Shown here one piece after another: positions 14,421 to 45,345 of a stretch of DNA of 64,000 nt. The stretch is taken from positions 30,427-94,426 of the forward strand of contig CAWDVE010000004.1 of assembly GCA_963805625.1 (NCBI GenBank), written 5' to 3'. The position numbers and the translations under genes were made by a program. Each line of letters begins with the position of its first letter. Position 1 is the first letter of the stretch. The notes under the pieces are model-generated. The model did no database searches. It was not told the DNA's origin and was given only the letters and a program-made list of their open reading frames with translations. This stretch comes from an uncultured Candidatus Rokubacteria bacterium. GTDB taxonomy: Bacteria; Methylomirabilota; Methylomirabilia; Rokubacteriales; DASRDR01.

Positions 14421-15701
14421 CTACTTCAGGATCTCGTCCACCCGCTGCTGCCCCTCGGCCAGGATCGGGCCGATGGGCTGATTCGTCGTCAGCACGGTCT
14501 GGAGCGCGGTGGTGATGGCGCGCTTGACCTCAATGATGTTCTTCACCGGCAGCTCGGCGAGCGCGAACTGGAGCTGCTCACGCGCCGTGAGCGCCTGGGG
14601 GTACTTGCCGACATAGTCCTTCATGAGCGGCGTCTCCCAGGAGGACTTCCTCGGAGCGACGTAGCCCGAGTCGATCGACCACCGGGCGAGCATCTCGGTC
14701 GACGTGATCCACTTCGTGAATTCCCAGGCCGCCTTCCGGCGGTCGGGGGGCGTCGCCTTGAAGAGGTAGACGTTCCCGCCGCCCGTCGGGGTGCCGAAGC
14801 GCTGACCCTTCGGGAGGAACGCCGTCCCGAACTCGAACTTCGCGTTGTTGCGGACGAAGCCGAGGCCGCCCGTCGTGTAGTAGATCATTGCCACGTTACC
14901 GGCGGCGAAATCGTTCGCCGTCGTGCCCCAGTTGATCGGGCCCGGGGGACTGACCTTCTCCTTCTCCCCGAGGTCCCGGAGGAACTGGGCAGCGGCCACG
15001 GCGGGCGGGCTCGACAGGAGCACCTTGCAGCAGGAGTTGTTCACATCGTAGAGGACGCCCCCCGCCGCGATGGTGAGGGCCTCGTAGAGCCACGTGTCGA
15101 CGCCGCCGCTCGACGGGATCATGAGACCCCAGCGCGTGGTCCGGCCGCCCTCCTGCTTGGTGAGCTTCTTCGCGGCCGCCACCAGCTCCGCCTGGGTCTG
15201 GGGCGGCTTGTTCGGATCGAGCCCGACCTCCTTGAACGCGTCCTTGTTGTAGTACATGACCGGCGTCGACCGCTGGAAGGGGATGGACCACACCTTACCG
15301 CCCTGCGTCGAGTTCAGCATGAAGGCGGGGTAGAAGTCGTCGATCTTGACCTGAGCGGCGTCCGCCGCGATCAGCTCGTCCAGCGGGATGACGATGTCCT
15401 GGCCCAGGATGTCGTTCAGGTTCTGGGACAGCATGATGGCCACATCGGGCGGGGTGCCCCCGCGGATGGCGGCCAGCGTCTTCGCGTAGGCCTCCGTGTA
15501 GCTGCCGGCGAACACCGGCTCGACCTGGATCTGGGGATTCTTCTGGTTCCACTCCTTGACGTACCCCTCGATGATTCGGGCGAGCCCTCCGGCCACGCCC
15601 ACCGGGTAGTAGAACTGGAGCTTCATCTGGGCCTGCGCCATCGGGGCAAATCCGCCGATGAGCGCGAGGACGACGGCGGCGACGAGCGTGCGGAGCTTCA
15701 T
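14421..15701 (-). CDS. Carbohydrate/glycerophosphodiester-type ABC substrate-binding protein (UgpB-like, family 1)
   Basis: Signal peptide MKLRTLVAAVVLALIGGFAPMAQAQ. 426-aa SBP located after two MalFG-type permease genes. Confidence 0.85.
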   Translation of the reverse strand: MKLRTLVAAVVLALIGGFAPMAQAQMKLQFYYPVGVAGGLARIIEGYVKEWNQKNPQIQVEPVFAGSYTEAYAKTLAAIRGGTPPDVAIMLSQNLNDILGQDIVIPLDELIAADAAQVKIDDFYPAFMLNSTQGGKVWSIPFQRSTPVMYYNKDAFKEVGLDPNKPPQTQAELVAAAKKLTKQEGGRTTRWGLMIPSSGGVDTWLYEALTIAAGGVLYDVNNSCCKVLLSSPPAVAAAQFLRDLGEKEKVSPPGPINWGTTANDFAAGNVAMIYYTTGGLGFVRNNAKFEFGTAFLPKGQRFGTPTGGGNVYLFKATPPDRRKAAWEFTKWITSTEMLARWSIDSGYVAPRKSSWETPLMKDYVGKYPQALTAREQLQFALAELPVKNIIEVKRAITTALQTVLTTNQPIGPILAEGQQRVDEILK

Positions 15702-15729
15702 GGACGCCTCCCTTTCGCGGGCCCGGGCG

Positions 15730-16530
15730 TCAGCCCTTCAGGCCCGACTGCGTGAACGACTGGATGAACAGCCTCTGGAAGAGGACGAACAGCAGCATCA
15801 AGGGCGCGATGACGATCAGGGTCCCGGCACAGATCAGCCCCCACTCCGCCCCGGACTCGGACGCGCGGGTGAAGGACTGGAGGCCGACGGCCAGGACGCG
15901 GTTGGAATTACTGGACGTCGCCACCAGGGGCCAGAGGAACTCGTTCCAGTGGTAGATCAGGCTCACCACCGAGAAGGCGGCGAGGTGTGGCCGGACCATC
16001 GGCACGAGCACGTGCCAGAGGGTGCGCAGTCGCCCCGCGCCATCGAGCATGGCCGCCTCGTCGTACTCCGGCGGGATGCTGCGGAAGCCCTGGCGGACGA
16101 GGAAGATCCCGTAGGCGCTCGCGACATACGGCATGGCGAGGCCCGTGAGGGTGTCACCGAGGCCGATGGCGCGGAGGGTGAGAAAGTTGGGCAGGATTAG
16201 GACGACGGGCGGCAGGAAGAGCTGCAGGAGCACGACGTAGAAGACGCTCTGGCGCCCCGGAAACCGAAGGCGGGCCAGGGCGTAGGCAGCGAGGGTGACC
16301 GTTACGAGCTGGACGGCGAGAAGGCCCACCGTGTAGAGGATCGTGTTGCGATAGTAGAGGACGAACGTCGCCGACTGCCAGGCCAGTGAGAAGTTCTCGA
16401 GCGTCGGCGGGAAGCTCCAGTAGCGGCCCTGGCCGAACTCCCGCGACGGCGTGAAGGACGCCAGGAACAGGAACGCGATCGGCCCCAGGAACGGCAGGGC
16501 CAGCAGGAGCGCCGGCCAGTCACGCCTCAT
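15730..16530 (-). CDS. Carbohydrate ABC transporter permease (UgpE/MalG-like)
   Basis: Six-TM protein with an EAA-type loop region (..IPPEYDEAAMLDGAGRLRTLWHVLVPM..). Confidence 0.9.
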   Translation of the reverse strand: MRRDWPALLLALPFLGPIAFLFLASFTPSREFGQGRYWSFPPTLENFSLAWQSATFVLYYRNTILYTVGLLAVQLVTVTLAAYALARLRFPGRQSVFYVVLLQLFLPPVVLILPNFLTLRAIGLGDTLTGLAMPYVASAYGIFLVRQGFRSIPPEYDEAAMLDGAGRLRTLWHVLVPMVRPHLAAFSVVSLIYHWNEFLWPLVATSSNSNRVLAVGLQSFTRASESGAEWGLICAGTLIVIAPLMLLFVLFQRLFIQSFTQSGLKG

Positions 16531-17464
16531 AGTGAACCCCTCGCTCGAGCCGCGGCATGACGAGGAGGGCGAGAGTCAGGAGCAGCGCCACCATCAGGAT
16601 GGTGAGCGCCGAGGCCCGGCCAGTGTCCCAGAACTCGAAGGCCTTGAGGTACGTCTCGTACAGCAGCACGTTGGTCGCGTTCGCCGGGCCCCCGCGCGTC
16701 AGCACGAAGATGTGGTCCACGTTCCGAAGCGCGTCGAGGGCGGCCGTCACCCCGACGTAGAAGGTGATCGGTCCCAGGAGCGGCCACGTCACGTGGCGGA
16801 AGACCCGCCACTCCGACGCGCCCTCGACACGCGCGCCATCCTGCAAGTCGCGGGGGATGGCCTGGAGCCCGGCCAGGAAGAACAGCATGTACAGACCGCA
16901 GTTCTTGTAGATGGCGACGAGGGCGACCGTGATCAGCGCGGTCCTGGGGTCCTCGAGCAATCCCTGCGCGCGACCGGTCAGGCGGCCGATCAGGGTGGCG
17001 ACGGGACCTGAAACCGGATTCAGGAGGAACAGCCAGGTGGCGGCGATGGCGACCGTCGGCAGCAGCACGGGGTGAAAGATGAGGGTCCGGGCGGCGAGCC
17101 GGAGCCGACGGTGTCCGTCGACCGCGACCGCGGCGCCGAGGCCGAACAGCACGGCGAGCGGTCCGACGATCAGGGCGTACAGGCCCGTGTTGACCAGCAC
17201 CTGGCGGAAGAGCGCGTCGCGCCAGAGGTCACGGTAGTTCTGCAGTCCGACCCACCGGGAGGTGGCTCCGGCCTGGGTGAAGCGCTGGAAGGAGCCGAGG
17301 ACGGAGACCACGAGGGGCCAGTAGGTGAAAACCAGGAGGAACACGAGTGTCGGCGCGAGCAGTGCCGCCGCCAGCCCGACCGTCGACCGGCTGACCCTCC
17401 GACGCGTCCGGACACCGGGTACCACCAGTGTCCCCACCTCCGCGCCGAGTGTGGTCACGAGCAT
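16520..17464 (-). CDS. Carbohydrate ABC transporter permease (UgpA/MalF-like)
   Basis: EAA loop ..IPRDLQDGARVEGASEWRVFRHVTWPLL... The ORF-track start at 17575 adds a Pro/Arg-rich non-membrane extension; ATG 17464 (MLVTTLG..) is more plausible. Confidence 0.85.
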   Translation of the reverse strand: MLVTTLGAEVGTLVVPGVRTRRRVSRSTVGLAAALLAPTLVFLLVFTYWPLVVSVLGSFQRFTQAGATSRWVGLQNYRDLWRDALFRQVLVNTGLYALIVGPLAVLFGLGAAVAVDGHRRLRLAARTLIFHPVLLPTVAIAATWLFLLNPVSGPVATLIGRLTGRAQGLLEDPRTALITVALVAIYKNCGLYMLFFLAGLQAIPRDLQDGARVEGASEWRVFRHVTWPLLGPITFYVGVTAALDALRNVDHIFVLTRGGPANATNVLLYETYLKAFEFWDTGRASALTILMVALLLTLALLVMPRLERGVHYEA

Positions 17465-17721: not shown

Positions 17722-18756
17722 ATGCGATCAACCGTCCGAACCCTCGTGGCGCTCCTTGCGGGGCTCGCCGCGTGTCTCGTGCCCGGGGTAGCCCGGGCTC
17801 AGGGCCAGCTGGTGCTCTACTGCACACCGCAGGAGGAGTGGTGCCGGGCGATGGTGACGGCCTTCGAGCGCACCACCGGCATCAAGGTCAACATGACCCG
17901 CAAGAGCTCCGGGGAGAACTACGCCCAGATCAAGGCCGAGGCCGCGAACCCGAAGGGCGACATCTGGTGGGGCGGCACTGGGGACCCCCATCTCCAGGCC
18001 GCGGAGGAGGGCCTGACCCTCGAGTACAAGTCGCCGAAGCTGGGCGAGCTCCAGGAATGGGCGGTGCGTCAGGCTGAGCAGTCGAAGTACCGGACCGTCG
18101 GAGTCTACGCGGGCGCCCTCGGATTCGGTTACAACACGGAGCTCCTCGCCAAGAAGGGGCTGCCCGAGCCAAAGTGCTGGGCGGACCTCCTCGACCCCAG
18201 GTTCAAGGACGAGGTGCAGGTGGCCGACCCGAACTCCTCCGGGACGTCGTACACCATGCTCGCGACCATGGTGCAGATCATGGGCGAGGACAAGGGCTTC
18301 GACTACCTGAAGAAGCTCCACAAGAACGTGAACCAGTACACGAAGTCCGGCGCGGCGCCCGCGCAGGCGATGAGCCAGGGCGAGACGCTGATCGGCATCA
18401 CGTTCATGCACGACATCGTGACCTTTGCCGTCCAGGGCCGTCCGGTCAAGGTCGTGGCACCGTGCGAGGGTACCGGCTACGAGATCGGCTCGCAAAGCAT
18501 CATCAAGGGCGGGCCGAACCTCGAGAACGCGAAGAAGTGGTACGACTGGGCGCTCACGCCCGAGGCGCAGGCCCTCGGCGCCCCGGCGAAGGCGTACCAG
18601 GTGCCCTCGAACAAGAGCGCGCCCGTCCCGCCCCAGGCGCCGAAGTTCACGCAGATCAAGCTCATCAACTACGACTTCGCCAAGTACGGCTCCTCAGCCG
18701 AGCGCAGGCGCCTGCTCCAGAAGTGGGACACGGAGGTCAAGGCGCTCCCGAAGTGA
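17722..18756 (+). CDS. FbpA/AfuA/PhnS-type periplasmic substrate-binding protein
   Basis: ATG 17722 has a GAGGAGGA SD. Signal peptide MRSTVRTLVALLAGLAACLVPGVARAQ. Followed by a fused double permease and an ATPase, the classic Fbp/Afu/PhnSTUV layout. Confidence 0.85.
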   Translation: MRSTVRTLVALLAGLAACLVPGVARAQGQLVLYCTPQEEWCRAMVTAFERTTGIKVNMTRKSSGENYAQIKAEAANPKGDIWWGGTGDPHLQAAEEGLTLEYKSPKLGELQEWAVRQAEQSKYRTVGVYAGALGFGYNTELLAKKGLPEPKCWADLLDPRFKDEVQVADPNSSGTSYTMLATMVQIMGEDKGFDYLKKLHKNVNQYTKSGAAPAQAMSQGETLIGITFMHDIVTFAVQGRPVKVVAPCEGTGYEIGSQSIIKGGPNLENAKKWYDWALTPEAQALGAPAKAYQVPSNKSAPVPPQAPKFTQIKLINYDFAKYGSSAERRRLLQKWDTEVKALPK

Positions 18757-18844
18757 CGATCAGGGGACCCTCGCTCGCGGGCCTGCCGCAGGCTCTGCGG
18801 GCGAGGGTCTCCACCTTCACGGTCGACCTCGATCCCGGTCCGGT

Positions 18845-21049
18845 ATGACGCGCGCGGCGACGGGCTGGCTGGGGCTCGCCTGGCTGGCCTTCGCCCTCCT
18901 GCCGTGGTACGCGCTCCCGGGCGACGGCTGGCTCGATCCGGGCTGGCTCCGGCGCTACCCCGACGCCGTCACGGCGTCAGCCTTGCTCCAGGGTATCTTC
19001 CACGGCCGGCCGTGGCTCCTTCCCACCGCGTTACCGCTCTTGCTCCCGTTTCTCGCGTGGCGCCGCCCGAAGGAGGATCCGCGCGCTGCGACCGCACTCG
19101 TGGTGGCGGGAGCGAGCGGTCTCGCGTGGATCGCCCTCCAGGGATTTGCCATCGGCCACCGGGGTTGGTCGGCGGCCTGGCTCGCGAACCTCCTCGGCGC
19201 CCCCGGGCCCAGCCAGGCGGGCTTCGGCCTGGGGGCGCTGCTCCTCTGCCTGGCGTGCCTCGTGCTGCTCTGCCACGGTCTGGCGGCACGGGGGTTCATG
19301 AAGGGCGACGCCTTCCTGACCAGCACGATCGGTCTCGTCGTCGGCCTCGTGGTGGTCTTCGTCTTCTGGCCGGTCGTTACGGTACTCTCGAGCGCGGTGC
19401 GCGACGAAGGTGGCGCGCTCGCGCCGACGGTCTTCCTCCATAAGCTCACGAACCGGTCGATCTGGGGCCTCGACTGCCTCTCCGGTCCGCTCCGGTGCGG
19501 CGTTGCCTGGAACACGCTGTTTCTCGCGGTCCTCGTCGGAGCCGGCACGACGGTCCTCGGCCTGGCCTTTGCTCTCATCGCCACCCGCACGGCGTTTCCC
19601 GCCAAGCCTCTTCTGCGCGCGCTGTCCGTGCTCCCGATCATCACGCCGCCGTTCGTGATCGGTCTCGCGCTGATCCTCCTCTTCGGCCGCTCGGGGGCCG
19701 TCACGGCCCTGCTCTCGGACTGGTTCGGGATCCCGCGGACCCGCTGGATTTACGGATTGCCGGGAGTGCTAATCGCCCAGCTCCTCGCCTTCGCGCCGAT
19801 CGCGTTCCTGGTCCTGATCGGCGTCGTCCAGGGGATCAGCCCGTCGCTCGAGGAGGCGGCGCAGACGCTCCGGGCGAGCCGCTGGACGACCTTCCGGACG
19901 GTGACGTGGCCTCTCCTCAGGCCCGGGGTCGCGAACGCGTTCCTGCTGGGATTCGTGGAGAGCATGGCCGACTTCGGCAACCCCCTGGTGCTGTCGGGCA
20001 ACTACGAGCTCCTGTCCATCCAGATCTTCTTCGCCGTGGTGGGGGCGGCGCACGATCAGGGCCGCGCGGCCGTGCTCGCCATCGTGCTGCTCACGTTCAC
20101 GCTGGGGGCGTTCTACGCGCAGCAGCGGTGGCTCGGCCGGGTGGCCTACACCACGGTAACCGGGAAGGGGGACGCCGGCCTTCCAGTCACGCTCCCCGCG
20201 CCCCTCCGCTGGGGCTGCTACGCGCTCGCCCTGCCGTGGGGGATCCTGGCGCTCGTGATCTATGCCGTCATCATCGTCGGGGGGTTCGTGCGGGCCATGG
20301 GGCGGGACTACACGCCGACCCTCGAGTACTTCGCGACAGGCTTCGGCGTCGAGCGCGCGGCATCGGGCGGCCTCCATTTCACGGGATCGGCGTGGGACTC
20401 CTTCTGGACCACGATCGAGATCGCCGCCATCTCGGCCCCCATCACCGCCGTGATCGGCGTGCTGACCGCATACCTGCTCGCGCGGCAGCGGTTCGTGGGC
20501 CGGAGCCTGTTCGAGTTCGGCACGATGCTCTCATTCGCCATCCCGGGGACGGTCATCGGCGTGGCCTACATCCTCGCGTTCAACGTGCCGCCCATCGAGC
20601 TCACGGGCACCGGCGTGATCCTGGTCCTCTGCTTCGTCTTCCGTAACATGCCGGTCGGCGTGCGGGCGGGAATCGCCGCGCTCTCGCAGATCGACCGGAG
20701 TCTCGACGAGGCCTCGCTCACCCTGGGCGCCCGGACGGGCACGACGATGCGCCGCGTCGTGCTGCCGCTCCTCCGTCCGGCGATCGTGGCCGCGCTCGTG
20801 TACAGTTTTGTCCGCGCGATGACTGCGGTCAGCGCTGTGATCTTCCTGGTCAGTGCGCGTTACAACCTCGCCACCGCGTACATCGTCGGCCGGGTCGAGG
20901 CGGGGGAGTTCGGCCTGGCCATTGCCTACTCGTCGGTCCTGATCGTCGTGATGCTGGCGGCGATCCTCCTCATCCAGTGGCTCGTCGGCGAGCGCCGGCT
21001 CGGGCGGCGGGCGCCCGCCGACCTCGGGATCCAGACGGCGGGCGGATAG
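18845..21049 (+). CDS. Fused two-domain ABC permease (FbpB/AfuB-like)
   Basis: ATG 18845 (MTRAATGWLGLAWLAF..). The first 140 codons of the ORF-track ORF overlap the SBP gene in another frame. There are two tandem permease modules, each with an EAA-type loop (..SLEEAAQTLRASRWTTFRTVTWPLL.. and ..SLDEASLTLGARTGTTMRRVVLPLL..). Confidence 0.85.
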   Translation: MTRAATGWLGLAWLAFALLPWYALPGDGWLDPGWLRRYPDAVTASALLQGIFHGRPWLLPTALPLLLPFLAWRRPKEDPRAATALVVAGASGLAWIALQGFAIGHRGWSAAWLANLLGAPGPSQAGFGLGALLLCLACLVLLCHGLAARGFMKGDAFLTSTIGLVVGLVVVFVFWPVVTVLSSAVRDEGGALAPTVFLHKLTNRSIWGLDCLSGPLRCGVAWNTLFLAVLVGAGTTVLGLAFALIATRTAFPAKPLLRALSVLPIITPPFVIGLALILLFGRSGAVTALLSDWFGIPRTRWIYGLPGVLIAQLLAFAPIAFLVLIGVVQGISPSLEEAAQTLRASRWTTFRTVTWPLLRPGVANAFLLGFVESMADFGNPLVLSGNYELLSIQIFFAVVGAAHDQGRAAVLAIVLLTFTLGAFYAQQRWLGRVAYTTVTGKGDAGLPVTLPAPLRWGCYALALPWGILALVIYAVIIVGGFVRAMGRDYTPTLEYFATGFGVERAASGGLHFTGSAWDSFWTTIEIAAISAPITAVIGVLTAYLLARQRFVGRSLFEFGTMLSFAIPGTVIGVAYILAFNVPPIELTGTGVILVLCFVFRNMPVGVRAGIAALSQIDRSLDEASLTLGARTGTTMRRVVLPLLRPAIVAALVYSFVRAMTAVSAVIFLVSARYNLATAYIVGRVEAGEFGLAIAYSSVLIVVMLAAILLIQWLVGERRLGRRAPADLGIQTAGG

Positions 21050-21056
21050 GCGGGGC

Positions 21057-22133
21057 ATGATGGCCAGAGAGGACGGCGGCGGGGCCGCGGCGGTCGAGTT
21101 CCACCGTGTGACCAAGCGCTACGGGGATGTCGTCGCCGTGAACGAGGTGTCGTTTACGATCGAGCGGGCGACGCTCGTCACGCTGCTCGGCCCCTCGGGC
21201 TGCGGCAAGACGACGACCCTTCGCCTCATCGCCGGGCTCGAGCTGGCGAGCGAAGGGGAGGTCCGGATCGGCGGGCGAGACGTCACGCGCCGGCCGGCGA
21301 CCGAGCGAAACGTCAGCATGGTGTTCCAGTCGTACGCGCTCTTCCCGCACATGACGGTGCTCGAGAACGTCGCCTACGGCCCGGTCGTCACGGGCGTGTC
21401 CCGGGGACGGGCTCACGAGCAGGCGCGGGAGAAGCTGGCCCTGGTCGGTCTCCAGGGGCTCGACGCGCGGCTGCCCTCCGAGCTCTCGGGAGGGCAGCAG
21501 CAGCGGGTCGCGGTCGCGCGGGCCCTGGTGCTCGAGCCCGAGGTGCTGTGCTTCGACGAGCCGCTCTCGAACCTCGACGCCAAGCTTCGGCGCCGGGTCC
21601 GCGAGGACATCCGCGAGCTCCAGCAGCGCCTCGGCCTCACGGTGGCCTACGTGACGCACGATCAGCAAGAAGCCCTCGCGGTCTCCGATCGCATCATCGT
21701 CATGGACCACGCCGCCATCGCCCAGAGTGGAACGCCGCGGGAGCTCTACGAGGCGCCGGTGAGCCTCTTCGTGGCCGACTTCGTCGGCGACTCGAATCTC
21801 GTCGACGGCGAGCTCACGGCGCGAAACGGGGTCGCGGGGCGGGTGCGGGTCGGCAGCGTCGAGCTCAACCTGCCGCACCGGGGCGCCGCGCCGGGTCGGG
21901 TGAAGGTGGCCGTGCGGCCCGAGTCCCTCAGGCTCTCCACCGCGCCGCCCGCGGGGCCGGCGCTCGAGGGCCGGATCGCCAAGGCCGCCTATCTGGGCAC
22001 GCACATGGAATACACTGTGTCCACGCCGGTCGGGGAGCTCTTCGTGGTGGATCGTATGGTCACGCGCCCCGCACCCGCAGGAACACCGGTGTGGGTGGTC
22101 TTCGAGGACCACGGTGTCACGGTCGTTCCCTGA
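21057..22133 (+). CDS. ABC transporter ATP-binding protein (FbpC/PotA-like, with C-terminal TOBE-type domain)
   Basis: Walker [10 protein letters not shown], signature [15 protein letters not shown], Walker B VLCFDEPLS. Confidence 0.9.
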   Translation: MMAREDGGGAAAVEFHRVTKRYGDVVAVNEVSFTIERATLVTLLGPSGCGKTTTLRLIAGLELASEGEVRIGGRDVTRRPATERNVSMVFQSYALFPHMTVLENVAYGPVVTGVSRGRAHEQAREKLALVGLQGLDARLPSELSGGQQQRVAVARALVLEPEVLCFDEPLSNLDAKLRRRVREDIRELQQRLGLTVAYVTHDQQEALAVSDRIIVMDHAAIAQSGTPRELYEAPVSLFVADFVGDSNLVDGELTARNGVAGRVRVGSVELNLPHRGAAPGRVKVAVRPESLRLSTAPPAGPALEGRIAKAAYLGTHMEYTVSTPVGELFVVDRMVTRPAPAGTPVWVVFEDHGVTVVP

Positions 22134-22135
22134 TC

Positions 22136-22212: not shown

Positions 22213-22227
22213 CAGGAAGGAGAGTCC

Positions 22228-37909: not shown

Positions 37910-37966
37910 CCAGCCCGATCCCGCGGGCGGCGGCATGATTGCCGCCGTCCGCGCGGTTCTGCGGAC

Positions 37967-38818
37967 ATGAAACGCGCGGGCGCCCGAGCGGAGGCGATCG
38001 TCACCGGAACGCTGCTGCTTCCGGCGGCGGCAGCCTTTGTCGGGCTGTTCTGCTATCCGATGTTCCTGACCCTCATCCTGAGCCTTCGACCCGAGGGAGC
38101 CGACACGGGGTGGACCCTGTCGCACTACGTGGCGTTCCTGAGCGACCCGGACGGGCGAGGGGTCGTGCTGCTCACGTTCGGCCTCGCCTTCGCGGCGACC
38201 GTCCTCTCCGTGATGCTGAGCTTGCCGGTGGCCCTTGCGCTGCGCCGTAAGCTGCCGGGGCACCGGGCCTTTCGGCTCGTGGTGCTCGTGCCGCTCGTCG
38301 TGCCCGGTCTCATCGGTGCGCTCGGGCTCCTCATCTTCTGGGGCCCGCGCGGGTGGTTCAACCTTCTGCTGACGCAGATCCTCTTCTTGCGGCCGCTCGT
38401 CGTGACCTACACGCTTCCCGGCCTGATCCTCTTCTACCTGTGGCTCTACTTCCCGTACACGTGCGTGACCACGCTGGGGGCGCTGGAGAGCCTCGATCCC
38501 GCGATCGAGGAGGCGGCGGAGGTGGCGGGCGCCGGCCGCTGGCAGCTTCTCCGGCACGTGCTCCTCCCGCTCATCACGCCGGGGATCCTCGCCGGCTCCG
38601 TCCTCACCTTCATGGCCGCCTTCGGGGCCTTCAGCGTGCCCCTCGTGGCAGGCGGGAACTACCGGCCCCTGGCCGTGGAGATCTACAAGCAGATCTCGGT
38701 TCCCATCCCGCCCCGGTGGTCGGGCGCCAGCGCGATCGCCATCGTCATGGGCGTGGTGCAGGTCGGATTTCTCGCGTTCTACATGCGGTCGGTCCGCCGG
38801 CTCGGAGGCCGGCGATGA
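37967..38818 (+). CDS. ABC transporter permease
   Basis: Six-TM protein with EAA loop ..AIEEAAEVAGAGRWQLLRHVLLPLI... Confidence 0.85.
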   Translation: MKRAGARAEAIVTGTLLLPAAAAFVGLFCYPMFLTLILSLRPEGADTGWTLSHYVAFLSDPDGRGVVLLTFGLAFAATVLSVMLSLPVALALRRKLPGHRAFRLVVLVPLVVPGLIGALGLLIFWGPRGWFNLLLTQILFLRPLVVTYTLPGLILFYLWLYFPYTCVTTLGALESLDPAIEEAAEVAGAGRWQLLRHVLLPLITPGILAGSVLTFMAAFGAFSVPLVAGGNYRPLAVEIYKQISVPIPPRWSGASAIAIVMGVVQVGFLAFYMRSVRRLGGRR

Positions 38819-39654
38819 GGCCGCTCGCGCGCGCGTACGGCCGAGGCCTCTGGGACGCGCGGGCGGTGCTCGGCTACACGATCCTCGTGAGCCTGACGCT
38901 CTTCATCGTCGCGCCGTTCCTGATGATCGCGCTTCGCTCGGTGGGCAAGGGGTGGTTCGGCAAGCTGTGGGTGCCGCCCCAGCTCACGCTCGAGTGGTAC
39001 CGCTGGGCGATCGAGGTCGGCAACATCCCGGAGGTGCTCCGGAACACGGTGATCATCGGCGTGATCGCGGTCGCGATCAGCACCACCATCGGGCTCTTCG
39101 CCGGCTGGGCGTTCGGCCGGCGGCGTCTCCCTGGCAAGGAGCTGCTGCTGGCGGTTTTCCTGCTGCCGCTCATGATCCCCTCGATCACCTATGCCCTCGG
39201 GGTCGCGCGGATCTTCTACGCGCTGCGTCTGGTGGATACTCACTTCGGGGTGGCGCTGGCCCACGTCGCGGTGTGCGCGCCGTACGCCATCATGGTGCTC
39301 GCGGCGACCTTCGAGGGGCTGGACGAGCGGGTGCTCGAGGCGGCGAGCGTGTGCGGCGCCGGCCCGGTCCGGCGCTTCTTCCACGTGGTGCTGCCGCTGG
39401 TGATGCCGGGGATCCTCGCCTCGGCGATCTTCACGTTCACGCACTCGTACAACGAGTTCACGCTGACGCTGCTCACGTACGGGCCGCACACGGTGACGCT
39501 GCCCGTACGAACCTACCTGGCGGTGGGCGACGGCTACTGGGAGATCACCAGCGCGATGGCGGTGCTCATGGTCGCGCCGTCGCTCCTGATCCTCGCATTG
39601 GTCCAGCGGCGCGCACGTCCCGAGCGCCTGGTCGGCGGCTTCAAGGGGGCGTGA
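38815..39654 (+). CDS. ABC transporter permease
   Basis: ATG 38815 (ATGA overlap). ..RVLEAASVCGAGPVRRFFHVVLPLV... The ORF-track start at 38353 is out-of-frame read-through of the previous gene. Confidence 0.85.
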   Translation: MRPLARAYGRGLWDARAVLGYTILVSLTLFIVAPFLMIALRSVGKGWFGKLWVPPQLTLEWYRWAIEVGNIPEVLRNTVIIGVIAVAISTTIGLFAGWAFGRRRLPGKELLLAVFLLPLMIPSITYALGVARIFYALRLVDTHFGVALAHVAVCAPYAIMVLAATFEGLDERVLEAASVCGAGPVRRFFHVVLPLVMPGILASAIFTFTHSYNEFTLTLLTYGPHTVTLPVRTYLAVGDGYWEITSAMAVLMVAPSLLILALVQRRARPERLVGGFKGA

Positions 39655-39655
39655 G

Positions 39656-40736
39656 GTGCCGGACCCGATGATCGAGCTTCGCGGCGTGACGACGCGCTAC
39701 GGCACGGTTCTCGCCAACGACCGCCTCGATCTCGTCGTCCACCGGGGCGAGCTCCTGACGCTGCTCGGCCCGTCGGGCTGCGGGAAGACCACGGCGCTCC
39801 GGACGCTCACGGGCCACGTGCGGCCCGACGAGGGCCGGGTCCTGATCGACGGGCGGGACGTGACGGACCTTCCCACGCACCGGCGCGATCTCGGCATGGT
39901 GTTCCAGAACTTCGCCCTGTTCCCGCACATGACGGTGCGCGACAACGTGGGCTTCCCGCTGATGATCCGCGGGGTGTCCGTCGCCGAGCGGGCCAGCCGC
40001 GTCGCGGAGGCGCTGCGGCTCGTCCGGCTGGAGGGGCACGCCGACAAGCAGCCGCGCCAGCTCTCCGGCGGCCAGCAGCAGCGGGTGGGGCTCGCCCGCG
40101 CGCTCGTGTACCGGCCGAAGGTGCTCCTCCTCGACGAGCCGCTCTCGAACCTCGACGCCAAGCTGCGCGAGGAGATGCGCTTCGAGATCCGGGACGTGGT
40201 CACGCGCCTCGGCGTGACGGCGGTGTACGTGACTCACGACCAGGAGGAGGCGCTCGCCCTGTCGGATCGCATCGCCATCATGCACCGCGGCCGCATCGAG
40301 CAGCTCGGCACACCCGAGGACATCTACGCGCGGCCCGCATCCCGGTTCGTCGCCGAGTTCGTCGGGCCTCTCGAGCTTCCTCGAGGGCGTGGTCGAGGCG
40401 GTGGGAGAGGGCGGAATGTGGGTCGCGGTGGGCGGCGGGCAGGTGACGGTACCGACGCTGCCGGGCGCGGCGCCGGGTCGTCGCGCGCTCCTCTTCGTGC
40501 GGCCGAACGAGGTCGAGCTGCTCCCCGGTGACGCGCCGGAGGCGGCGGGCGCTCTCCGGGCGACCGTGGAGGCGGCGACGTACCTGGGGGACCGCATGGA
40601 CTACCGGGTCCGTCTGGAGGGCGGGCTCGCCCTGCGCGTCCAGCAGGACGGCGGAGCGCGACTCGCGCCCGGAACCTCGGTGCGGCTCCGGCTTCCGCCC
40701 GGCCGGGTACGCGCGCTGTCCGACGCGAGCGCGTGA
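39656..40736 (+). pseudogene. ABC transporter ATP-binding protein interrupted by a 1-nt frameshift
   Basis: The N-terminal ATPase domain is intact in frame 2 ([33 protein letters not shown] ..RFVAEFVG). After about 40367 the homologous continuation (SSFLEGVVEAVGEGGMWVAVGGGQVTV..VRLRLPPGRVRAL, a TOBE-type domain) is in frame 0. Frame 2 decays into a Gly/Arg-rich tail ending at 40531. Confidence 0.75.
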
Positions 40737-40753
40737 AAGGAAGGGAAAGCATC

Positions 40754-41503
40754 ATGGGCACGCCAGTCACCCGCGTCGCGAGCCTGACGATGGAGGAGCT
40801 CGCCACGGCCCTGGGAGGGGGCCGCTGGCTGCTCCTGCCGTTCGGTACGGTGGAAGCGCACGGGCCTCATCTGGCCCTCGGCGCCGACCTGATCGACGCC
40901 GCGCGGATCTGCGGAGCGGTGGCCGAGCGCGTCGGTGGGCTCGTCGCCCCGGGCTTCCCCTACGGTGTCTGCCGCACGATGCGGAACTTCCCGGGCACCG
41001 TGTCGCTGTCGGCGGCGACCTTCACGGCTGCCGTGCGCGAGGTCGTGCGCGAGTACGTCCGCCACGGCGCGCGGCGGCTCGCGCTCTACTCCGGACATGC
41101 TGAGCCGGCCCAGCTCGAGGCGTTGCGCGAGGCGGTGGTCCCGATCGCCGACGCCGAGCCTGCCGTCGAGATCCTCGTCGTCGGGCCCTACGCCTTCCTC
41201 GACGCCGTGCGCGAGGCGGCCGGGCTCACGGGCCGCGACGGGCACGCGGCGTCCCTCGAGACGTCGACCCTGCTCGCGCTCGATCCCGGCGCCGTGAGGC
41301 TCGACCGCATCCCGGACGTCCGCGAGCGCCCGCGCCTGTCCGTGTTCCGCGTGGCGGCGCACCCCGAGACGGAGTTCCCGAGGGCGGTTCGAGGCGACAC
41401 GAGCCGGGTCTCGCTTGATCTCGGCCAGCGCGCGGTCGAGCACGTCGTGGCCGAGTTCACCACCCTCCTCGAGCGCGTGGCCCGGACGGGACGCGAATGG
41501 TAG
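40754..41503 (+). CDS. Creatininase-family amidohydrolase
   Basis: ..LLLPFGTVEAHGPHLALGADL.., ..GFPYGV..M.NFPGTVSLS.. fit the creatinine amidohydrolase fold family. ATG 40754 follows AGGAAGGGAAAG. Confidence 0.75.
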   Translation: MGTPVTRVASLTMEELATALGGGRWLLLPFGTVEAHGPHLALGADLIDAARICGAVAERVGGLVAPGFPYGVCRTMRNFPGTVSLSAATFTAAVREVVREYVRHGARRLALYSGHAEPAQLEALREAVVPIADAEPAVEILVVGPYAFLDAVREAAGLTGRDGHAASLETSTLLALDPGAVRLDRIPDVRERPRLSVFRVAAHPETEFPRAVRGDTSRVSLDLGQRAVEHVVAEFTTLLERVARTGREW

Positions 41504-42384
41504 GCCGCCCGGCTCGACGCTGGGCGGCGGCCGTGGCGGCCGGGCTCCGGGCCGCCGCCGCCGCCGTGCGGCGGACCGATCCGCGCCGCGGCCAGCGCGT
41601 GGTCGCCGGCCGGGCCGAGGGCTACCGGCCGTTCGACCCCGAGGTGATCGGGGTCGACACGGCGGCCGAGGGCGCGGCGGTCACCGCGCTCCGCCGCGCC
41701 GGAGTTCACGGCACCCTCCTGTCGGAGGAGGCCGGCGAGCGACCCCTCCCGCGACCCCGGACGGGGGCCTGCCCGGAGCCGGTCTACGTCGTCATGGATC
41801 CATTCGACGGCAGCATGCTCTACCGCCGCGGCATCCGCGCCATGTGGTATACGGGTCTCGGCCTCTGGGGACTCGACGGCACCTCGCGGGCCGCCGGCCT
41901 CGTGGACCACATCACGGGGGAGCTCGTCCTCTCGGACGGGAGCGGAGTCCGTCGGTGGACCCGTGCCAGGACGCGGCCGGACCGGCCGCGCCCCGCCCTG
42001 ACCCGCGAGATCGAGGCGGCCTTCGTCGAGGCCTACATGATGAAGCCGGCGTTTCTCTACCCGACCGCCGAGGCGCTGCGCCCGCTGCTCGACCGGGTCC
42101 GGTTCGTCTTGCCGAATGGCGGGCCCGGCGGGTTCGTCGACGTCGCCTGCGGGCGGGTCGACGTCTACCTTGCGTGGCGCGAGGCGCTGACCGAGGTGTT
42201 CTCCACCGTGGCCGTCGCCCTTGCCGCGGGATGCGTCGTCAGCGGCTGGGACGGCGCCCCGCTGGTCTTCCGTCCCGACATCAACGCGCTCCACACCGTG
42301 GTCTGCAGCGCCAACCCACGCCTGCACGCGGAGGTGCTCCGCGCGCTCGAGGGCGTCGCACCGCCCGGAGGGATCCCCGCATGA
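41497..42384 (+). CDS. IMPase/FBPase-superfamily phosphatase (divergent)
   Basis: Metal-site motifs LSEEAGE and VVMDPFDGS, and a C-terminal ..AAGCVVSGWDGAPL... Overlaps the creatininase-family gene by 7 nt. Confidence 0.65.
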   Translation: MVGRPARRWAAAVAAGLRAAAAAVRRTDPRRGQRVVAGRAEGYRPFDPEVIGVDTAAEGAAVTALRRAGVHGTLLSEEAGERPLPRPRTGACPEPVYVVMDPFDGSMLYRRGIRAMWYTGLGLWGLDGTSRAAGLVDHITGELVLSDGSGVRRWTRARTRPDRPRPALTREIEAAFVEAYMMKPAFLYPTAEALRPLLDRVRFVLPNGGPGGFVDVACGRVDVYLAWREALTEVFSTVAVALAAGCVVSGWDGAPLVFRPDINALHTVVCSANPRLHAEVLRALEGVAPPGGIPA

Positions 42385-43163
42385 GGTTCGGCTGCATCTG
42401 TGGCTCGTTCAACCGCTCGTTCGCCGCCGGCGCGATGGACCAGCTCCGCTTCGTCGCACACTGCAAGGACGTCCTCGGCGTCGCCGGCGTGGAGTTCCAG
42501 GACATTCACTTTCCGGAGACGCGCCCCGCGTACCTCGACCGGCTGCGCCGCGCGGCGGCGGACCGCGGCCTCGCGGTCATCGGCATCGGGATCCACAACG
42601 ACTTCGGTCGTCGGGACGAGTGCCTGCGGGCGAGCGAGGTGGTGAAGGTCAAGCAGTGGGTGGAGGTCGCCGAGCGACTCGGCGCGCCCATGGTCCGGGT
42701 CTTCGCCGGGTGGCCCGAGGGAACCGCGGCCGAGCGATGGGCCGACATGATCGTGGCCCTCCGGGAGGCCTCGGCCTTCGCGCACGCCGCAGGCGTGCGG
42801 CTCGCGCTCGAGAACGAGGCGGGCTTCACGCCGTCGGTCGCGGAGCACGTCCGGATCCTGGAGGAGGTGGGCTCTCCCGCGCTCGGGCTCCTGCTCGACA
42901 CGGGAAACTACCCCGCCGGATGGCTGTCCGTCGAGCAGGCGGCGCCGCGCGCGATGCACGTCCATGCGAAGTTCTGGAAGGTGGGGCCGGGCGGAGAGGA
43001 GCCCACGATGAACTATCCAGCCCTCCTGACGCAGCTGCGCCAGGAGGGCTACCCGGGCTGGATCACGTTCGAGTACGAGGCGGCCGAGCCCGAAGCCACG
43101 GGGCTCCCGCGCGCCTTCACATACCTGCGCCGTCTCGTGGAGTCCGTCGGAGTGGCGGGCTAG
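42381..43163 (+). CDS. Sugar phosphate isomerase/epimerase (xylose-isomerase-like TIM barrel)
   Basis: ATG 42381 (ATGA overlap). ..GVAGVEFQDIHF.., ..VRLALENE.., ..LLLDTGNY.., ..HVHAKF... Confidence 0.8.
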   Translation: MRFGCICGSFNRSFAAGAMDQLRFVAHCKDVLGVAGVEFQDIHFPETRPAYLDRLRRAAADRGLAVIGIGIHNDFGRRDECLRASEVVKVKQWVEVAERLGAPMVRVFAGWPEGTAAERWADMIVALREASAFAHAAGVRLALENEAGFTPSVAEHVRILEEVGSPALGLLLDTGNYPAGWLSVEQAAPRAMHVHAKFWKVGPGGEEPTMNYPALLTQLRQEGYPGWITFEYEAAEPEATGLPRAFTYLRRLVESVGVAG

Positions 43164-43252
43164 CGAAACTTCTGCTCAACCCCGTCGACGCATGGAGCAG
43201 GGTCGCCGGGGTGTGCCGCCGGCTTTCCCGGAGAGGGTCGCCCGGTGAGTCG

Positions 43253-43438
43253 CTAGGCCAGCGAGGGCGTGTCCTCGCGATCAGGGCGGGGGAGCAGCGA
43301 GGACCCCTGGCGCCGATCCTCGATCACGTCGATCCAGCCAAGGTCTGCAAAGAGCTCGCGCGCCGCCTCCAGCAGGCTGCTCTGCCCGCGTGCCACGACC
43401 AGGAGTGCGCGCTCGTCCCGAGGATCGTTGTCCGCCAT
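43253..43438 (-). CDS. Small conserved hypothetical protein (61 aa)
   Basis: ATG 43438 has an AAGGAGG SD 6 nt upstream (MADNDPRDERALLVVARGQSSLLEAARELFADLGWIDVIEDRRQGSSLLPRPDREDTPSLA). The ORF-track start at 43567 is probably too far upstream. Confidence 0.5.
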   Translation of the reverse strand: MADNDPRDERALLVVARGQSSLLEAARELFADLGWIDVIEDRRQGSSLLPRPDREDTPSLA

Positions 43439-43603
43439 GCGAACCTCCTTGCGGGTTGGTCGGCCGGCCACAACATCCAGTGTGACACTGGGCCCGATCA
43501 TACGACAGGCTGGGCCTGCGAAGCCAGGGCTTTCGGACGCCGAGGCGGGGCCCGCGGAACAGGCCACCCGCGGCCCGATCGCCCCACTTCACGGCCGGCG
43601 CGA

Positions 43604-43632
43604 TTGACACCCCTCGGAGCGGCCCCTAGAGT
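43604..43632 (+). promoter_or_regulatory. Sigma-70 promoter with leaderless geometry
   Basis: TTGACA (43604-43609), 17-nt spacer, TAGAGT (43627-43632). The GTG start of the kinase gene (43639) is exactly 7 nt after the -10 box. Confidence 0.55.
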
Positions 43633-43638
43633 GACAGC

Positions 43639-44496
43639 GTGGCTTCCGGCCGCGCAGGCGTGCCCCCGGACTTCGTCGCCGTGGGCCATCTCACCGTCGA
43701 CGAGCTGGAGGCCGGGCTTCGTCCCGGGGGCTCGGCGCTCTACGCGGGGCTCTTCGCCCACCATCAGGGCCTTCGGGTCGGGCTCTTGACGAGTTATGGT
43801 CCGGATTTCCCGTTCGACGTCCTCCCGCCGGAGATCGAGGTCGTCGCGGTGCCGGCGGCCGCCACGACGCGGTTCGCCCTCGACTATCGGTCCGGCGGGC
43901 GGCGCCTCACCCTCAAGGAGCGCGCTGCGAACCTCGAGTTCGAGCACCTGCCGGCCCACTTCGCGGAGGCAGGCCTCGCGTATCTCTGCCCCGTGGCGGA
44001 CGAGGTGTCGCCCGAGCTCGCAAGCGCGTTCCCGGACGCGGCCATCGGCGTCGGGGCTCAGGGCTGGTGCCGCGTGTGGGATCGTGACGGCATTGTGACG
44101 ATGCGGCCCTGGCCCGATCCGCAGCCCGTCCTCGCCCGAGCCCAGGCGCTCTTCCTCTCGAGCGACGACGTGGCGGGCTGGGAGTCGCGCGCGACCGAGC
44201 TCTACCAGGACGTGCCGCTCGGGGCCCTGACCTTCGCCGACAGGGGGGCGATCCTCCTCGTGAACGGGGAGCGGCATCCCGTCCTCGCGGCGCCGGCTCG
44301 GGAGGTTGAGCCGACGGGAGCGGGGGACGTCTTCGCCGCTGCGTTCCTCATCCGCTACAACCTCACCGGCGACCCTTTCGAGGCCGCCTCGTACGCGGCC
44401 GTCGCGGGCGCGCTCACGGTCGAGGCGCCCGGGATCTCCGGCGTGCCGACGGCCGAGCGCCTCGCCGGCCGGTGGCGGGCCTCGCAGCCGCGCTGA
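43639..44496 (+). CDS. PfkB-family carbohydrate kinase
   Basis: ..DFVAVGHLTVDE.., C-terminal PTGAGDVFAAAFLIRY (the GAGD anion-hole motif). Confidence 0.8.
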   Translation: MASGRAGVPPDFVAVGHLTVDELEAGLRPGGSALYAGLFAHHQGLRVGLLTSYGPDFPFDVLPPEIEVVAVPAAATTRFALDYRSGGRRLTLKERAANLEFEHLPAHFAEAGLAYLCPVADEVSPELASAFPDAAIGVGAQGWCRVWDRDGIVTMRPWPDPQPVLARAQALFLSSDDVAGWESRATELYQDVPLGALTFADRGAILLVNGERHPVLAAPAREVEPTGAGDVFAAAFLIRYNLTGDPFEAASYAAVAGALTVEAPGISGVPTAERLAGRWRASQPR

Positions 44497-44526
44497 GTCC
44501 GTCGCCCCCGCGCTCTGGAGGGACCC

Positions 44527-45345
44527 ATGAGCGAGTACTGGTGGATCATTTTCCTCTTCATCGCACTCCAACCGGTCATCAAGCAGAAGGTGCTCGAGGC
44601 CAGCCGGATGCGCGTCCTGAAGCGGCTCGAGCAGGGGCGCCGGAGCCGGGTCATCGCGCTGGTGCACCGCCAGGAGACGATGAGCCTCCTCGGGTTCCCG
44701 ATCATGCGCTACATCGACGTCAACGACTCGGAGGAGGTACTGCGGGCGATCGAGCTGACGGACTCCGAGGTCCCGATCGACCTCGTCGTCCACACGCCCG
44801 GCGGGCTCGTGCTGGCCGCCGGCCAGATCGCGCACGCGCTCAGGCGCCACCGGGGCAAGGTCACCGTCTTCGTCCCGCACTACGCCATGTCGGGTGGCAC
44901 TCTACTCGCGCTGGCGGCCGACGAGATCGTGATGGCCGCGAACGCCGTGCTCGGGCCCGTGGATCCTCAGCTCGGCCAGTCGCCGGCGGCCTCGATCCTC
45001 TCCGTCCTGGAGCGGAAGGAGATGAAGGACATCGACGACCAGACGCTCATCCTCGCGGACGTCGCCCGCAAGGCCTTCGTCCAGGTGCAGGTCATGGTCC
45101 GCGACCTCTTGATGGAGCACATGACGGAGGAGAAGGCGTCCGACATCGCGGTGAAGCTGTCGACCGGCACGTGGACGCACGACTATGCCATCACCGCGGA
45201 AGAGGCTAAGGCGCTGGGCCTCCCCGTGACAACCGAGATGCCTCCCGAGGTCTACGAGCTGATGCGGCTCTTCCCGCAGCCGACGCGCACGCGCCCGTCG
45301 GTCGAGTACGTGCCGATCCCGTACCGGCGGCCGGGGAACCCCTGA
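44527..45345 (+). CDS. SDH-family Clp-fold serine protease (membrane-anchored)
   Basis: N-terminal TM YWWIIFLFIALQPV; ..IDLVVHTPGGLVLAAGQIA..VFVPHYAMSGGTLLALAADEIVM.. Confidence 0.75.
   Translation: MSEYWWIIFLFIALQPVIKQKVLEASRMRVLKRLEQGRRSRVIALVHRQETMSLLGFPIMRYIDVNDSEEVLRAIELTDSEVPIDLVVHTPGGLVLAAGQIAHALRRHRGKVTVFVPHYAMSGGTLLALAADEIVMAANAVLGPVDPQLGQSPAASILSVLERKEMKDIDDQTLILADVARKAFVQVQVMVRDLLMEHMTEEKASDIAVKLSTGTWTHDYAITAEEAKALGLPVTTEMPPEVYELMRLFPQPTRTRPSVEYVPIPYRRPGNP

Follow-up and report, generated by a model that had tools for sequence, protein, structure and literature searches.

What is taken up and degraded by the genes at positions 14421-45345 of a 64,000-nucleotide stretch of DNA (the window) from an uncultured Candidatus Rokubacteria bacterium (GenBank assembly GCA_963805625.1, contig CAWDVE010000004.1) is the question raised by this locus, in which inositol ring-opening genes lie among ABC importers, phosphatases, dehydrogenases and an aminotransferase. 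An earlier note, made from the letters alone, had described the region as a roughly 31-kb island for the uptake and conversion of inositol-type cyclitols, and all the gene classes that it listed were found there by Pfam, NCBIfam and tblastn. The best explanation, to which a probability of roughly 55% is given, is a chromosomal locus of several operons for the import of cyclitol derivatives and their conversion to scyllo-inosose, the ring of which is then opened. The substrates would be inositol phosphates and, as we infer, possibly inosamines. Raw lists of open reading frames (ORFs) of the window, the GC content of which is about 70%, were crowded by spurious frames; genes were called by third-position GC and then checked with the searches named above. 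Related loci on metagenome contigs or contigs of metagenome-assembled genomes (MAGs), which were used for comparison, are designated by L-numbers (L001, L014, L087 and so on).

The inositol assignment is anchored by two genes on the minus strand (23425-26149). The products of iolE (23425-24312; myo-inosose-2 dehydratase) and iolD (24314-26149; the ring-opening trihydroxycyclohexane-1,2-dione acylhydrolase) match the equivalog models TIGR04379 and TIGR04377 over their full lengths with 405 and 923 bits against cutoffs of 290 and 715, respectively, and by these scores they are true orthologues. The earlier description of the iol pathway as non-canonical and partial proved correct, since iolB and iolJ, as well as iolC and iolA, are missing from the 64 kb by Pfam and NCBIfam, and no ORF in it matched KduI/IolB, IolC or a class II aldolase. 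An inositol catabolic gene cluster (IolCatGC) has been defined by three of four core genes within 10 kb (PMC9430895); the region, with iolD and iolE only, lies outside this definition. The locus resembles the canonical iol clusters of Bacillus subtilis (iolABCDEFGHIJ) and Salmonella (GEI4417/4436) in its true iolD and iolE, its Gfo/Idh/MocA (Gfo) dehydrogenases, possibly of the IolG/IolW kind, its xylose-isomerase-like TIM barrels (XI-TIMs) of the IolI/IolH kind and a repressor-controlled operon. Unlike them, it lacks the four genes named above, has AfuA-type ABC importers in place of the major facilitator superfamily transporters IolT/IolF and a LacI-type regulator instead of IolR, and adds a DegT aminotransferase, two phosphatases of the inositol monophosphatase (IMPase) family, a creatininase-family enzyme and an inositol-kinase-like PfkB protein.

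Candidates for the missing steps were rejected. With the IolC_N model, the cutoff of which is 300, the PfkB protein reaches 19.9 bits. An HpcH aldolase and an aldehyde dehydrogenase (ALDH) downstream, which had been proposed as substitutes for IolJ and IolA, belong to the wrong subfamilies, the former being HpaI/GarL-like and the latter betaine-aldehyde-dehydrogenase-like (584 bits to BADH, as against 288 bits to MMSDH with a cutoff of 448). They co-occur with the cluster in Rokubacteria only, among unrelated CREG, luciferase-like monooxygenase, Uma2 and carbonic anhydrase genes.

The phosphorylated nature of the predicted substrates is suggested by the importers, of which four dependent on binding proteins occur in the region; the UgpBAE-like importer without an ATPase, the two paralogous SBP_bac_6 systems and the one further system that had been described were all recovered. 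The first Afu-like importer, on the plus strand at 17722-23391 together with a family III CoA-transferase gene, comprises the organophosphate-binding-type protein SBP6a (17722-18756), a fused double permease with two BPD_transp_1 domains (PermA, 18845-21049) and an ATPase with ABC_tran and TOBE_2 domains (ATPa, 21057-22133). The second, also on the plus strand, comprises SBP6b (29486-30508), the double permease PermB (30518-32701; two BPD_transp_1 domains, 48% identity to PermA) and an intact ATPase with ABC_tran and TOBE_2 in one frame (ATPb, 34723-35820). For both SBP_bac_6 proteins, which share 39% identity with each other, the best solved relative is AfuA (PDB 4r72-75), with 314 bits and 47% identity for SBP6a and 209 bits and 33% identity for SBP6b. 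AfuA is a hexose/heptose-phosphate binding protein formerly mis-annotated as an iron binder, in which mutagenesis showed that Ser37 and Thr150 bind the phosphate and that His205, Asp206 and Glu229 are essential for binding the sugar (PMC4546632). SBP6a retains all five residues (S37, T150, H205, D206 and E229). SBP6b retains four of the five (S, T, N, D, E), namely both phosphate ligands and the Asp and Glu, with Asn in place of the sugar-binding His205. Like AfuABC of Actinobacillus pleuropneumoniae and enteric pathogens (PDB 4R72-4R75), these systems combine their binding proteins with a fused double permease and a TOBE-type ATPase; unlike it, the system is duplicated and resides in a soil Rokubacterium, and the second copy, with its His205-to-Asn change, is interleaved with phosphatase and dehydrogenase genes. 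The AfuA ligand screen took in no inositol phosphates, and the ligands of the window proteins are predictions from sequence.

The genes interleaved with the second importer encode GfoB (32735-33817, plus strand), a Gfo dehydrogenase (PF01408) whose top named match is IolG (TIGR04380), in the N-terminal domain only, and IMPase1 (33929-34726, plus strand), the gene of which overlaps that of ATPb. Against the IolG model, GfoB scores 87 bits and the other Gfo protein of the locus, GfoA, 109 bits (cutoff 355). IMPase1 matches PF00459 with 193 bits, and HisN and SuhB with 191 and 142 bits, both below cutoff. A second, divergent member of the superfamily, IMPase2 (41497-42384, plus strand), matches PF00459 with 25 bits. 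The catalytic motifs DPxDG[TS] and WDxA are kept in both proteins, as DPLDGT and WDVAA in IMPase1 and as DPFDGS and WDGAP in IMPase2.

The strongest support for phosphorylated cyclitols is provided by homologous clusters elsewhere. Homologues of SBP6b with 62% identity and all five AfuA residues occur in an Armatimonadota MAG (L087) and in L089, in a cluster consisting of an XI-TIM, an IolG-like Gfo, a HAD phosphatase, an SBP_bac_6 protein with permease and ATPase, IolN, an IolO-like protein, and the SBP6b-like protein with a further permease and ATPase. The IolN adjoining the homologue in L087 reaches 531.8 bits (cutoff 245) and the IolO-like protein 295.8 bits (cutoff 300). These clusters connect the SBP6b importer family with a phosphatase and with cleavage of the inositol ring in two pathway types, with IolE/IolD in the window and IolN/IolO in the other setting, and the phosphatase is non-orthologously replaced, being an IMPase in the former and a HAD protein in the latter. 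The window also encodes a Cof-type HAD-IIB sugar-phosphate phosphatase (13247-14146, plus strand; TIGR00099, 167 bits against a cutoff of 137), just outside 14421-45345, which shares 44-53% identity with the HAD phosphatases inside the L087 and L089 clusters; judged by this similarity, it may belong to the locus, which would then start there. Downstream of the SBP6b-like importer in L089 (12368-14681) lie genes for a Cgl0159-family (beta/alpha)8 protein and a pyrophosphate-dependent phosphofructokinase-family kinase, which might act as kinase and aldolase in the lower part of an inositol route; neither is encoded in the window.

Further enzymes on the plus strand are compatible with cyclitol conversion. 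XI2 (35817-36698), a ketose-3-epimerase-like TIM barrel of the IolO/psicose-epimerase-like type, scores 132.8 bits against IolO (cutoff 300), and its PDB relatives are D-psicose/tagatose 3-epimerases, TM0416/IolO and YcjR; a role as inosose epimerase would fit. The third importer consists of the SBP_bac_8 protein SBP8 (36776-37909), for which no informative solved relative was found in the PDB, the permeases PermC1 (37967-38818) and PermC2 (38815-39654), all three assigned by Pfam, and a frameshifted ATPase, ATPc (39656-40730). It is followed by a creatininase-family metal hydrolase (Creat, 40733-41503; PF02633, 162 bits), IMPase2, which is invariably placed between Creat and XI3, and XI3 (42381-43163), a third XI-TIM with 43% identity by tblastn to the XI-TIM of L004 and weak matches to IolO (30.6 bits) and hydroxypyruvate isomerase. 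Creat bears the metal motif E-x-H-G-x-H and scores 115 bits against creatininase (cutoff 235), 44.7 bits against IolN (cutoff 245) and 99 bits against the creatininase in the PDB; by score it is neither creatininase nor IolN, and it could be either an amide hydrolase or a diketo-inositol hydrolase. As the C-C hydrolase IolN is itself a member of the creatininase family, Creat is not necessarily an amidase, and the acylated substrates that had been suggested are unsupported.

The last enzyme is a small PfkB kinase of 285 residues (43639-44496, plus strand), which is probably an inositol kinase according to its predicted structure and its residues. Its AlphaFold2 model (pLDDT 88.6) has as its top five Foldseek matches structures of the myo-inositol kinases MI3K (3w4s) and TM0415, the best being 3w4s, 1vk4, 7e4l and 5ysq with template modelling (TM) scores of 0.75-0.80, whereas the TM scores of other PfkB-family kinases, mostly ribokinases, do not exceed 0.73. 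The best PDB match of its sequence is likewise 3w4s, and one homologue is labelled 1D-myo-inositol 3-kinase by JGI. Q141-x3-R145, D21 and D230 are invariant, and the residues match the inositol-binding residues described for the PfkB-type kinases MI3K and TM0415 (PMC5931981), a correspondence read from numbering rather than from an explicit alignment.

The possible amino substrate is brought in by a DegT/DnrJ/EryC1-family pyridoxal-phosphate aminotransferase of 424 residues (26790-28064, plus strand; PF01041, 308 bits), in which the catalytic Schiff-base lysine, Lys207, is present and invariant across 13 homologues. It reaches no NCBIfam equivalog; its PDB relatives are KdnA (230 bits), ArnB (181 bits), perosamine synthase, 2-deoxy-scyllo-inosose aminotransferase (163 bits) and NtdA (105 bits), with 8GYH in third place. 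The next gene, the start of which overlaps the DegT stop, encodes GfoA (28061-29203, plus strand), a dehydrogenase of the levoglucosan-dehydrogenase/scyllo-inositol-dehydrogenase subfamily (PDB 6a3f, 271 bits; the scyllo-inositol dehydrogenase 5ya8, 187 bits; LevoglcsnDh, 295 bits against a cutoff of 650). There is a precedent for such chemistry in the DegT-family enzyme MosB, which transaminates scyllo-inosose to yield scyllo-inosamine (PMC6668481), and another in the 2-deoxy-scyllo-inosose aminotransferases. As in the rhizopine genes of Sinorhizobium meliloti (MosB; mocCABRDEF), the locus combines a DegT protein possibly interconverting scyllo-inosose and scyllo-inosamine with a MocA-family Gfo, a MocC-family IolE-like protein and a dependence on iol. 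Unlike the rhizopine system, it belongs to another phylum, its DegT gene stands in a catabolic, importer-linked operon, and it lacks MocR, the MocDEF oxygenase and an RbsB-type MocB; no GntR/aminotransferase fusion, Rieske/ferredoxin protein or Peripla_BP binding protein was found in the window, where the LacI remnant is the sole Peripla_BP-type gene.

The DegT gene is conserved together with its neighbours. Orthologues with 90-98% identity occur in MAGs labelled Candidatus Rokubacteria or Methylomirabilota, and in 11 Rokubacteria loci (DegT identity 79-98%) iolE and iolD are divergent to (LacI-)DegT. Furthermore, ANGP1, Bacillota and Armatimonadota MAGs and unclassified bacteria share LacI-DegT-GfoA, with LacI overlapping DegT and with DegT identities of 62-72%; this uncharacterised module is conserved across several phyla of uncultured soil bacteria. 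Its neighbours in the other phyla include CUT1 importers, a glycerophosphodiester phosphodiesterase (GDPD), homologues of IMPase1 (44%) and XI2 (61-64%), creatininase-family genes, a zinc-dependent alcohol dehydrogenase (Zn-ADH), a second Gfo and an enolase-superfamily dehydratase, all of them below the Iol equivalog cutoffs. In an NC10 MAG (L088, 5490-7897), a LacI-DegT pair of another lineage (PseC-like, 35% DegT identity) occupies the same position before SBP6b-PermB-GfoB(-IMPase1), which suggests that an aminotransferase was recruited twice, independently, to the SBP6b-GfoB module. A conversion of inosamine to inosose that feeds the adjacent IolE and IolD is the simplest reading and a plausible one; a role of DegT on 3-keto or 3-amino sugars is also possible. 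Thus, of the substrate classes proposed earlier, phosphorylated cyclitols are supported by the AfuA-type binding proteins, the coupling of an IMPase to ATPb, the HAD phosphatase and IolN beside the 62% homologues and the PfkB fold, and aminated ones are just plausible, given the conserved LacI-DegT-Gfo module and the second DegT lineage. The literature searched contained no paper linking DegT with iolD and iolE, no description of this arrangement under catabolic inosamine aminotransferases and nothing on inositol metabolism in Rokubacteria.

On this basis, a possible route can be proposed. Inositol monophosphates (myo-, scyllo- and other isomers) would enter through the Afu-like systems, and glycerophospho-inositol-type compounds possibly through the UgpB-like system. 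The phosphate would be removed by IMPase1, IMPase2 or the HAD phosphatase, after which GfoB and GfoA may oxidize the free cyclitol to an inosose, and XI2 and XI3 could epimerize non-scyllo inososes. DegT may convert an aminocyclitol (inosamine) to the same inosose with release of nitrogen. Then, IolE would dehydrate scyllo-inosose and IolD would open the ring to form 5-deoxy-glucuronate. The steps of IolB, IolC, IolJ and IolA would be encoded elsewhere or replaced.

The architecture of the region is in keeping with joint use of these genes. The DegT gene opens a close-packed string on the plus strand (26790-43163), in which GfoA, SBP6b, PermB, GfoB, IMPase1, ATPb and XI2 follow it, and then SBP8, PermC1, PermC2, the broken ATPc, Creat, IMPase2 and XI3; a gap of 476 nt (43163-43639) separates XI3 from PfkB and a protease gene. 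Stop and start codons overlap in six pairs (DegT/GfoA, IMPase1/ATPb, ATPb/XI2, PermC1/PermC2, Creat/IMPase2 and IMPase2/XI3), so the transport and enzyme genes form co-translated units and are no chance neighbours. Third-position GC had hinted at breaks in the second ATPase and in the segments at 28.1-29.3 and 42.4-43.2 kb, but the ATPase, GfoA and XI3 proved intact on translation and by tblastn.

Synteny across related genomes, a check that the earlier note had called for, revealed a conserved core and variable blocks. Among Rokubacteria with a DegT identity of 79-98%, the constant core consists of SBP6a-PermA-ATPa-CoA-transferase, iolE-iolD on the opposite strand, and (LacI)-DegT-(GfoA)-GfoB-IMPase1-XI2. 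The window, L014 and L020 also have SBP6b-PermB-ATPb and the block from SBP8 to XI3, both of which L032, L011, L010 and L001 lack; as L001 keeps IMPase1 and ATPase fragments, the shorter forms arose by deletion. Other modules follow DegT-GfoA in L015, L009 and L012. The block SBP8-PermC1-PermC2-ATPc-Creat-IMPase2-XI3(-PfkB) is a fixed operon, found in at least 20 metagenome contigs with creatininase identities as low as 58%, and in L063, L064 and L088 it is directly preceded by GfoB (80%), an IolE-like XI-TIM, IMPase1 (67%) and a GfoA-like gene.

The notion of a single 31-kb island could not be upheld, given at least five transcription units and the presence or absence of these two blocks among close relatives. 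Horizontal acquisition was ruled out as well: the GC content inside the region (0.67-0.75) is that of the flanks, no tRNAs, integrase or bounding repeats were found at it, and the gene order is common to Rokubacteria contigs, including the downstream HpcH, CREG/DUF2470, luciferase-like monooxygenase, Uma2, carbonic anhydrase and ALDH genes. In PLSDB, there was no near-identical annotated plasmid replicon, with short iolD or ugpC matches only (at most 76%). The region is a vertically inherited chromosomal locus of several tightly packed operons. What remains of the earlier delimitation is the cyclitol locus as such, without its last gene (44527-45345), which encodes a protease.

Several observations weigh against the cyclitol interpretation. 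Only IolD and IolE reach orthologue level; every other enzyme scores below its curated cutoff, and the substrates are thus deduced from family and context. With the four iol genes absent from the 64 kb, the route is incomplete there. DegT is nearer in sequence to KdnA and ArnB than to inosose aminotransferases, and GfoA is nearer to levoglucosan dehydrogenase than to any inositol dehydrogenase. Outside Rokubacteria, DegT-GfoA never has iolE and iolD within 10 kb, and their linkage may reflect a single ancestral event. SBP6a, with its full AfuA motif, may simply carry hexose phosphates such as glucose-6-phosphate or fructose-6-phosphate. Finally, the locus is eroding, with LacI deleted, ATPc frameshifted and several blocks lost in close relatives.

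The alternative that survives best, although it is unlikely, is a mosaic of unrelated modules lying side by side, in which an AfuABC-type hexose-phosphate importer adjoins an unrelated CoA-transferase, LacI-DegT-GfoA acts on 3-amino or 3-keto sugars by a reverse kanosamine (NtdABC-like) or 3-keto-glycoside route, a further block imports sugars, and iolE and iolD alone relate to inositol. It would account for the intact glucose-6-phosphate-binding residues of SBP6a, for the closest relatives of GfoA being levoglucosan dehydrogenases, which oxidize the C3 hydroxyl of a sugar, for the independent gain and loss of blocks, and for the restriction of the iolED neighbourhood to Rokubacteria. A Gfo, a DegT and a phosphatase also make up the NtdC/NtdA/NtdB set, and in both NtdABC and the Escherichia coli 3-keto-glycoside system YcjQRS a Gfo makes a ketone on which a DegT transaminase, an XI-TIM epimerase or a Zn-ADH acts, followed by a phosphatase; XI2 resembles the 3-keto-glucoside 4-epimerase YcjR. 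However, the similarity is at family level only (NtdA, 105 bits; YcjR, 51 bits), and the context in the window is one of uptake and iolED, with importer, phosphatase, dehydrogenase and epimerase genes interleaved and translationally coupled. Moreover, the adjacency of iolED persists over a DegT divergence of 79-98% identity, a true IolN/IolO pair accompanies these families in other phyla, GDPD and IMPase are neighbours of DegT-GfoA elsewhere, and PfkB resembles inositol kinases.

Somewhat less probable again is that the block from SBP8 to PfkB, together with GfoA and GfoB, represents an oxidative route like that of Thermotoga maritima (TM0411-TM0421: IolG, IolM, IolN, IolO, the kinase TM0415 and an ABC importer), in which inositol is converted to inosose and then to diketo-inositol, Creat would cleave the ring like IolN, an XI-TIM would epimerize like IolO, PfkB would act as TM0415, and iolB, iolC and iolJ would be unneeded. 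Four families (Gfo, creatininase, XI-TIM and a small PfkB nearest TM0415/MI3K) are indeed shared with the operon TM0411-0416, uptake is likewise by an ABC importer, the block is a fixed and widely conserved operon, and relatives of the importer family adjoin a true IolN and an IolO-like gene. In L004, L006 and L015, a Zn-ADH (IolM-like, 140 bits), a Gfo and an XI-TIM follow DegT-GfoA. Unlike in Thermotoga, however, all the window proteins score below the IolN, IolO, IolM and IolG equivalog cutoffs, Creat being closer to creatininase than to IolN and XI3 reaching just 31 bits to IolO; no Zn-ADH (IolM) gene was found in the window by tblastn; iolE and iolD are present; and Creat shares only 27-30% identity with the creatininases encoded close to DegT in other phyla. 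The Zn-ADH, Gfo327 and creatininases of those loci were themselves rejected as true IolM, IolG and IolN, all scoring below cutoff, and the label of a Thermotoga pathway was not applied to them. Very improbable is biosynthesis instead of breakdown, from inositol through inosose to inosamine with phosphorylation and dephosphorylation as by StrI/StsC/StrO (streptidine) or IdhA/MosB (rhizopine) to yield a metabolite or signal, since the combination of Gfo, DegT, IMPase-family phosphatase and kinase does equal the set of early streptidine synthesis (str/sts) and MosB makes scyllo-inosamine out of scyllo-inosose, but the locus has four binding-protein importers, the operon of its relatives begins with a LacI-type repressor gene, ring-opening iolED is adjacent, and Pfam scans of the region found no amidinotransferase, glycosyltransferase, methyltransferase or exporter.

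Two genes of the locus are broken, as had been recognized for both. The LacI-family repressor pseudogene (26241-26742, plus strand) matches residues 7-18, 34-66 and 268-377 of 430 by tblastn; blastn against the full-length LacI genes of the Rokubacteria L014, L020, L015 and L009 reveals a clean internal deletion of 611 nt at about 26410, which removes residues ~67-267 and shifts the frame. The loss of LacI has probably left the DegT operon of this lineage derepressed. In ATPc, on the plus strand, the nucleotide-binding domain (NBD) occupies one frame (39656 to about 40378) and the TOBE domain lies in the +1 frame at about 40392-40730, which places the frameshift at ~40378-40392. Orthologues in about 20 metagenome contigs have both domains in a single frame, for example L044 with 96% identity. 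Either or both of these lesions could be assembly errors.

The remaining components are less informative about the substrate. The UgpB-like system on the minus strand (14421-17464) comprises a CUT1 (family-1) solute-binding protein (14421-15701; SBP_bac_8 and SBP_bac_1), the top NCBIfam match of which is UgpB (145 bits against a cutoff of 411), and two permeases, each with BPD_transp_1 (15730-16530 and 16520-17464), the start codon ATG at 17464 being preceded by a ribosome-binding site; no ATPase gene accompanies it. The family III CoA-transferase (22228-23391, plus strand; CoA_transf_3, 377 bits; best equivalog match 276 bits against a cutoff of 750) is linked to the first importer only in Rokubacteria. 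The gene at 44527-45345 (plus strand) encodes an SDH-family serine protease of the ClpP-like fold (NF047768, 424 bits against a cutoff of 250), which lies inside the range first delimited and outside the pathway; it is found directly 3' of PfkB also in the Rokubacteria contigs L001, L032, L044, L085 and L086. In the closest relative, L086 (contig CAVVOZ010000024, 748-9801), XI3 and PfkB are separated by an insert of about 9 kb that carries an insertion sequence (rve integrase) and a gene for an RHS-repeat toxin.

Accessory genes of the DegT loci show patterns of their own. The Zn-ADH next to DegT-GfoA (L004 14798-15961, L006 13541-14701, L015 13606-14760, L033 and L043) is 82-86% identical across Rokubacteria, Armatimonadota, Bacillota and ANGP1 MAGs, and DegT over the same locus pairs just 65-70%, which suggests either a recent lateral spread of this module or an unusually strong constraint. 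Two paralogous FAD_oxidored (PF12831) genes, conserved at 82-90% and with no NCBIfam match, are divergent to LacI-DegT in many non-Rokubacteria loci (L007 5735-8675, L012, L023, L024, L027, L028, L033 and L037). Within the window, a relatively AT-rich palindromic element with the core GGGGTCAGACTTTGACTTCCYGACATT and its inverted partner occurs in two copies, one between the ATPa and CoA-transferase genes (22136-22212, inverted repeat I1) and the other upstream of a gamma-glutamyltranspeptidase gene (63512-63615); an 18-mer of it has three occurrences in the window, with 0.03 expected, and possible identities of the element are a REP-like sequence, a terminator and an operator. No riboswitches or other known RNAs were found in the window. 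Upstream of the region (2288-6169), a weak CDP-alcohol phosphatidyltransferase match, an LPG_synthase_TM protein and a B12-binding radical SAM enzyme may form a lipid head-group cluster, and downstream of it a DUF3300/DUF2950 gene pair lies at 55530-57813.

A more far-reaching proposal, which is advanced only tentatively and considered doubtful, is that the AfuA-type importers, having duplicated and diverged in uncultured soil phyla, are dedicated, together with cytoplasmic IMPase or HAD phosphatases, to inositol and inosamine monophosphates, and that the widespread LacI-DegT-Gfo module is a catabolic deaminating route feeding scyllo-inosose to IolE/IolD or IolN/IolO, which together would constitute an unrecognised turnover pathway for soil inositol phosphates and for aminocyclitols of the aminoglycoside or rhizopine type. 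The organic phosphorus of soil includes inositol phosphates as a major pool, and the uptake of their lower esters by uncultured soil bacteria is poorly known. If the cyclitol interpretation is true, import of intact inositol phosphates by Afu-like systems followed by cytoplasmic dephosphorylation and ring cleavage would be a new mode of uptake, serving carbon as well as phosphorus nutrition. Furthermore, a catabolic DegT feeding the iol enzymes would be the first defined enzyme for aminocyclitol deamination, with a bearing on rhizopines and the cores of aminoglycosides. The binding proteins, DegT, the IMPases and PfkB are candidates for biochemistry and for the correction of thousands of mis-annotations as "iron-binding protein" or "Kdo8N transaminase" in metagenomes.

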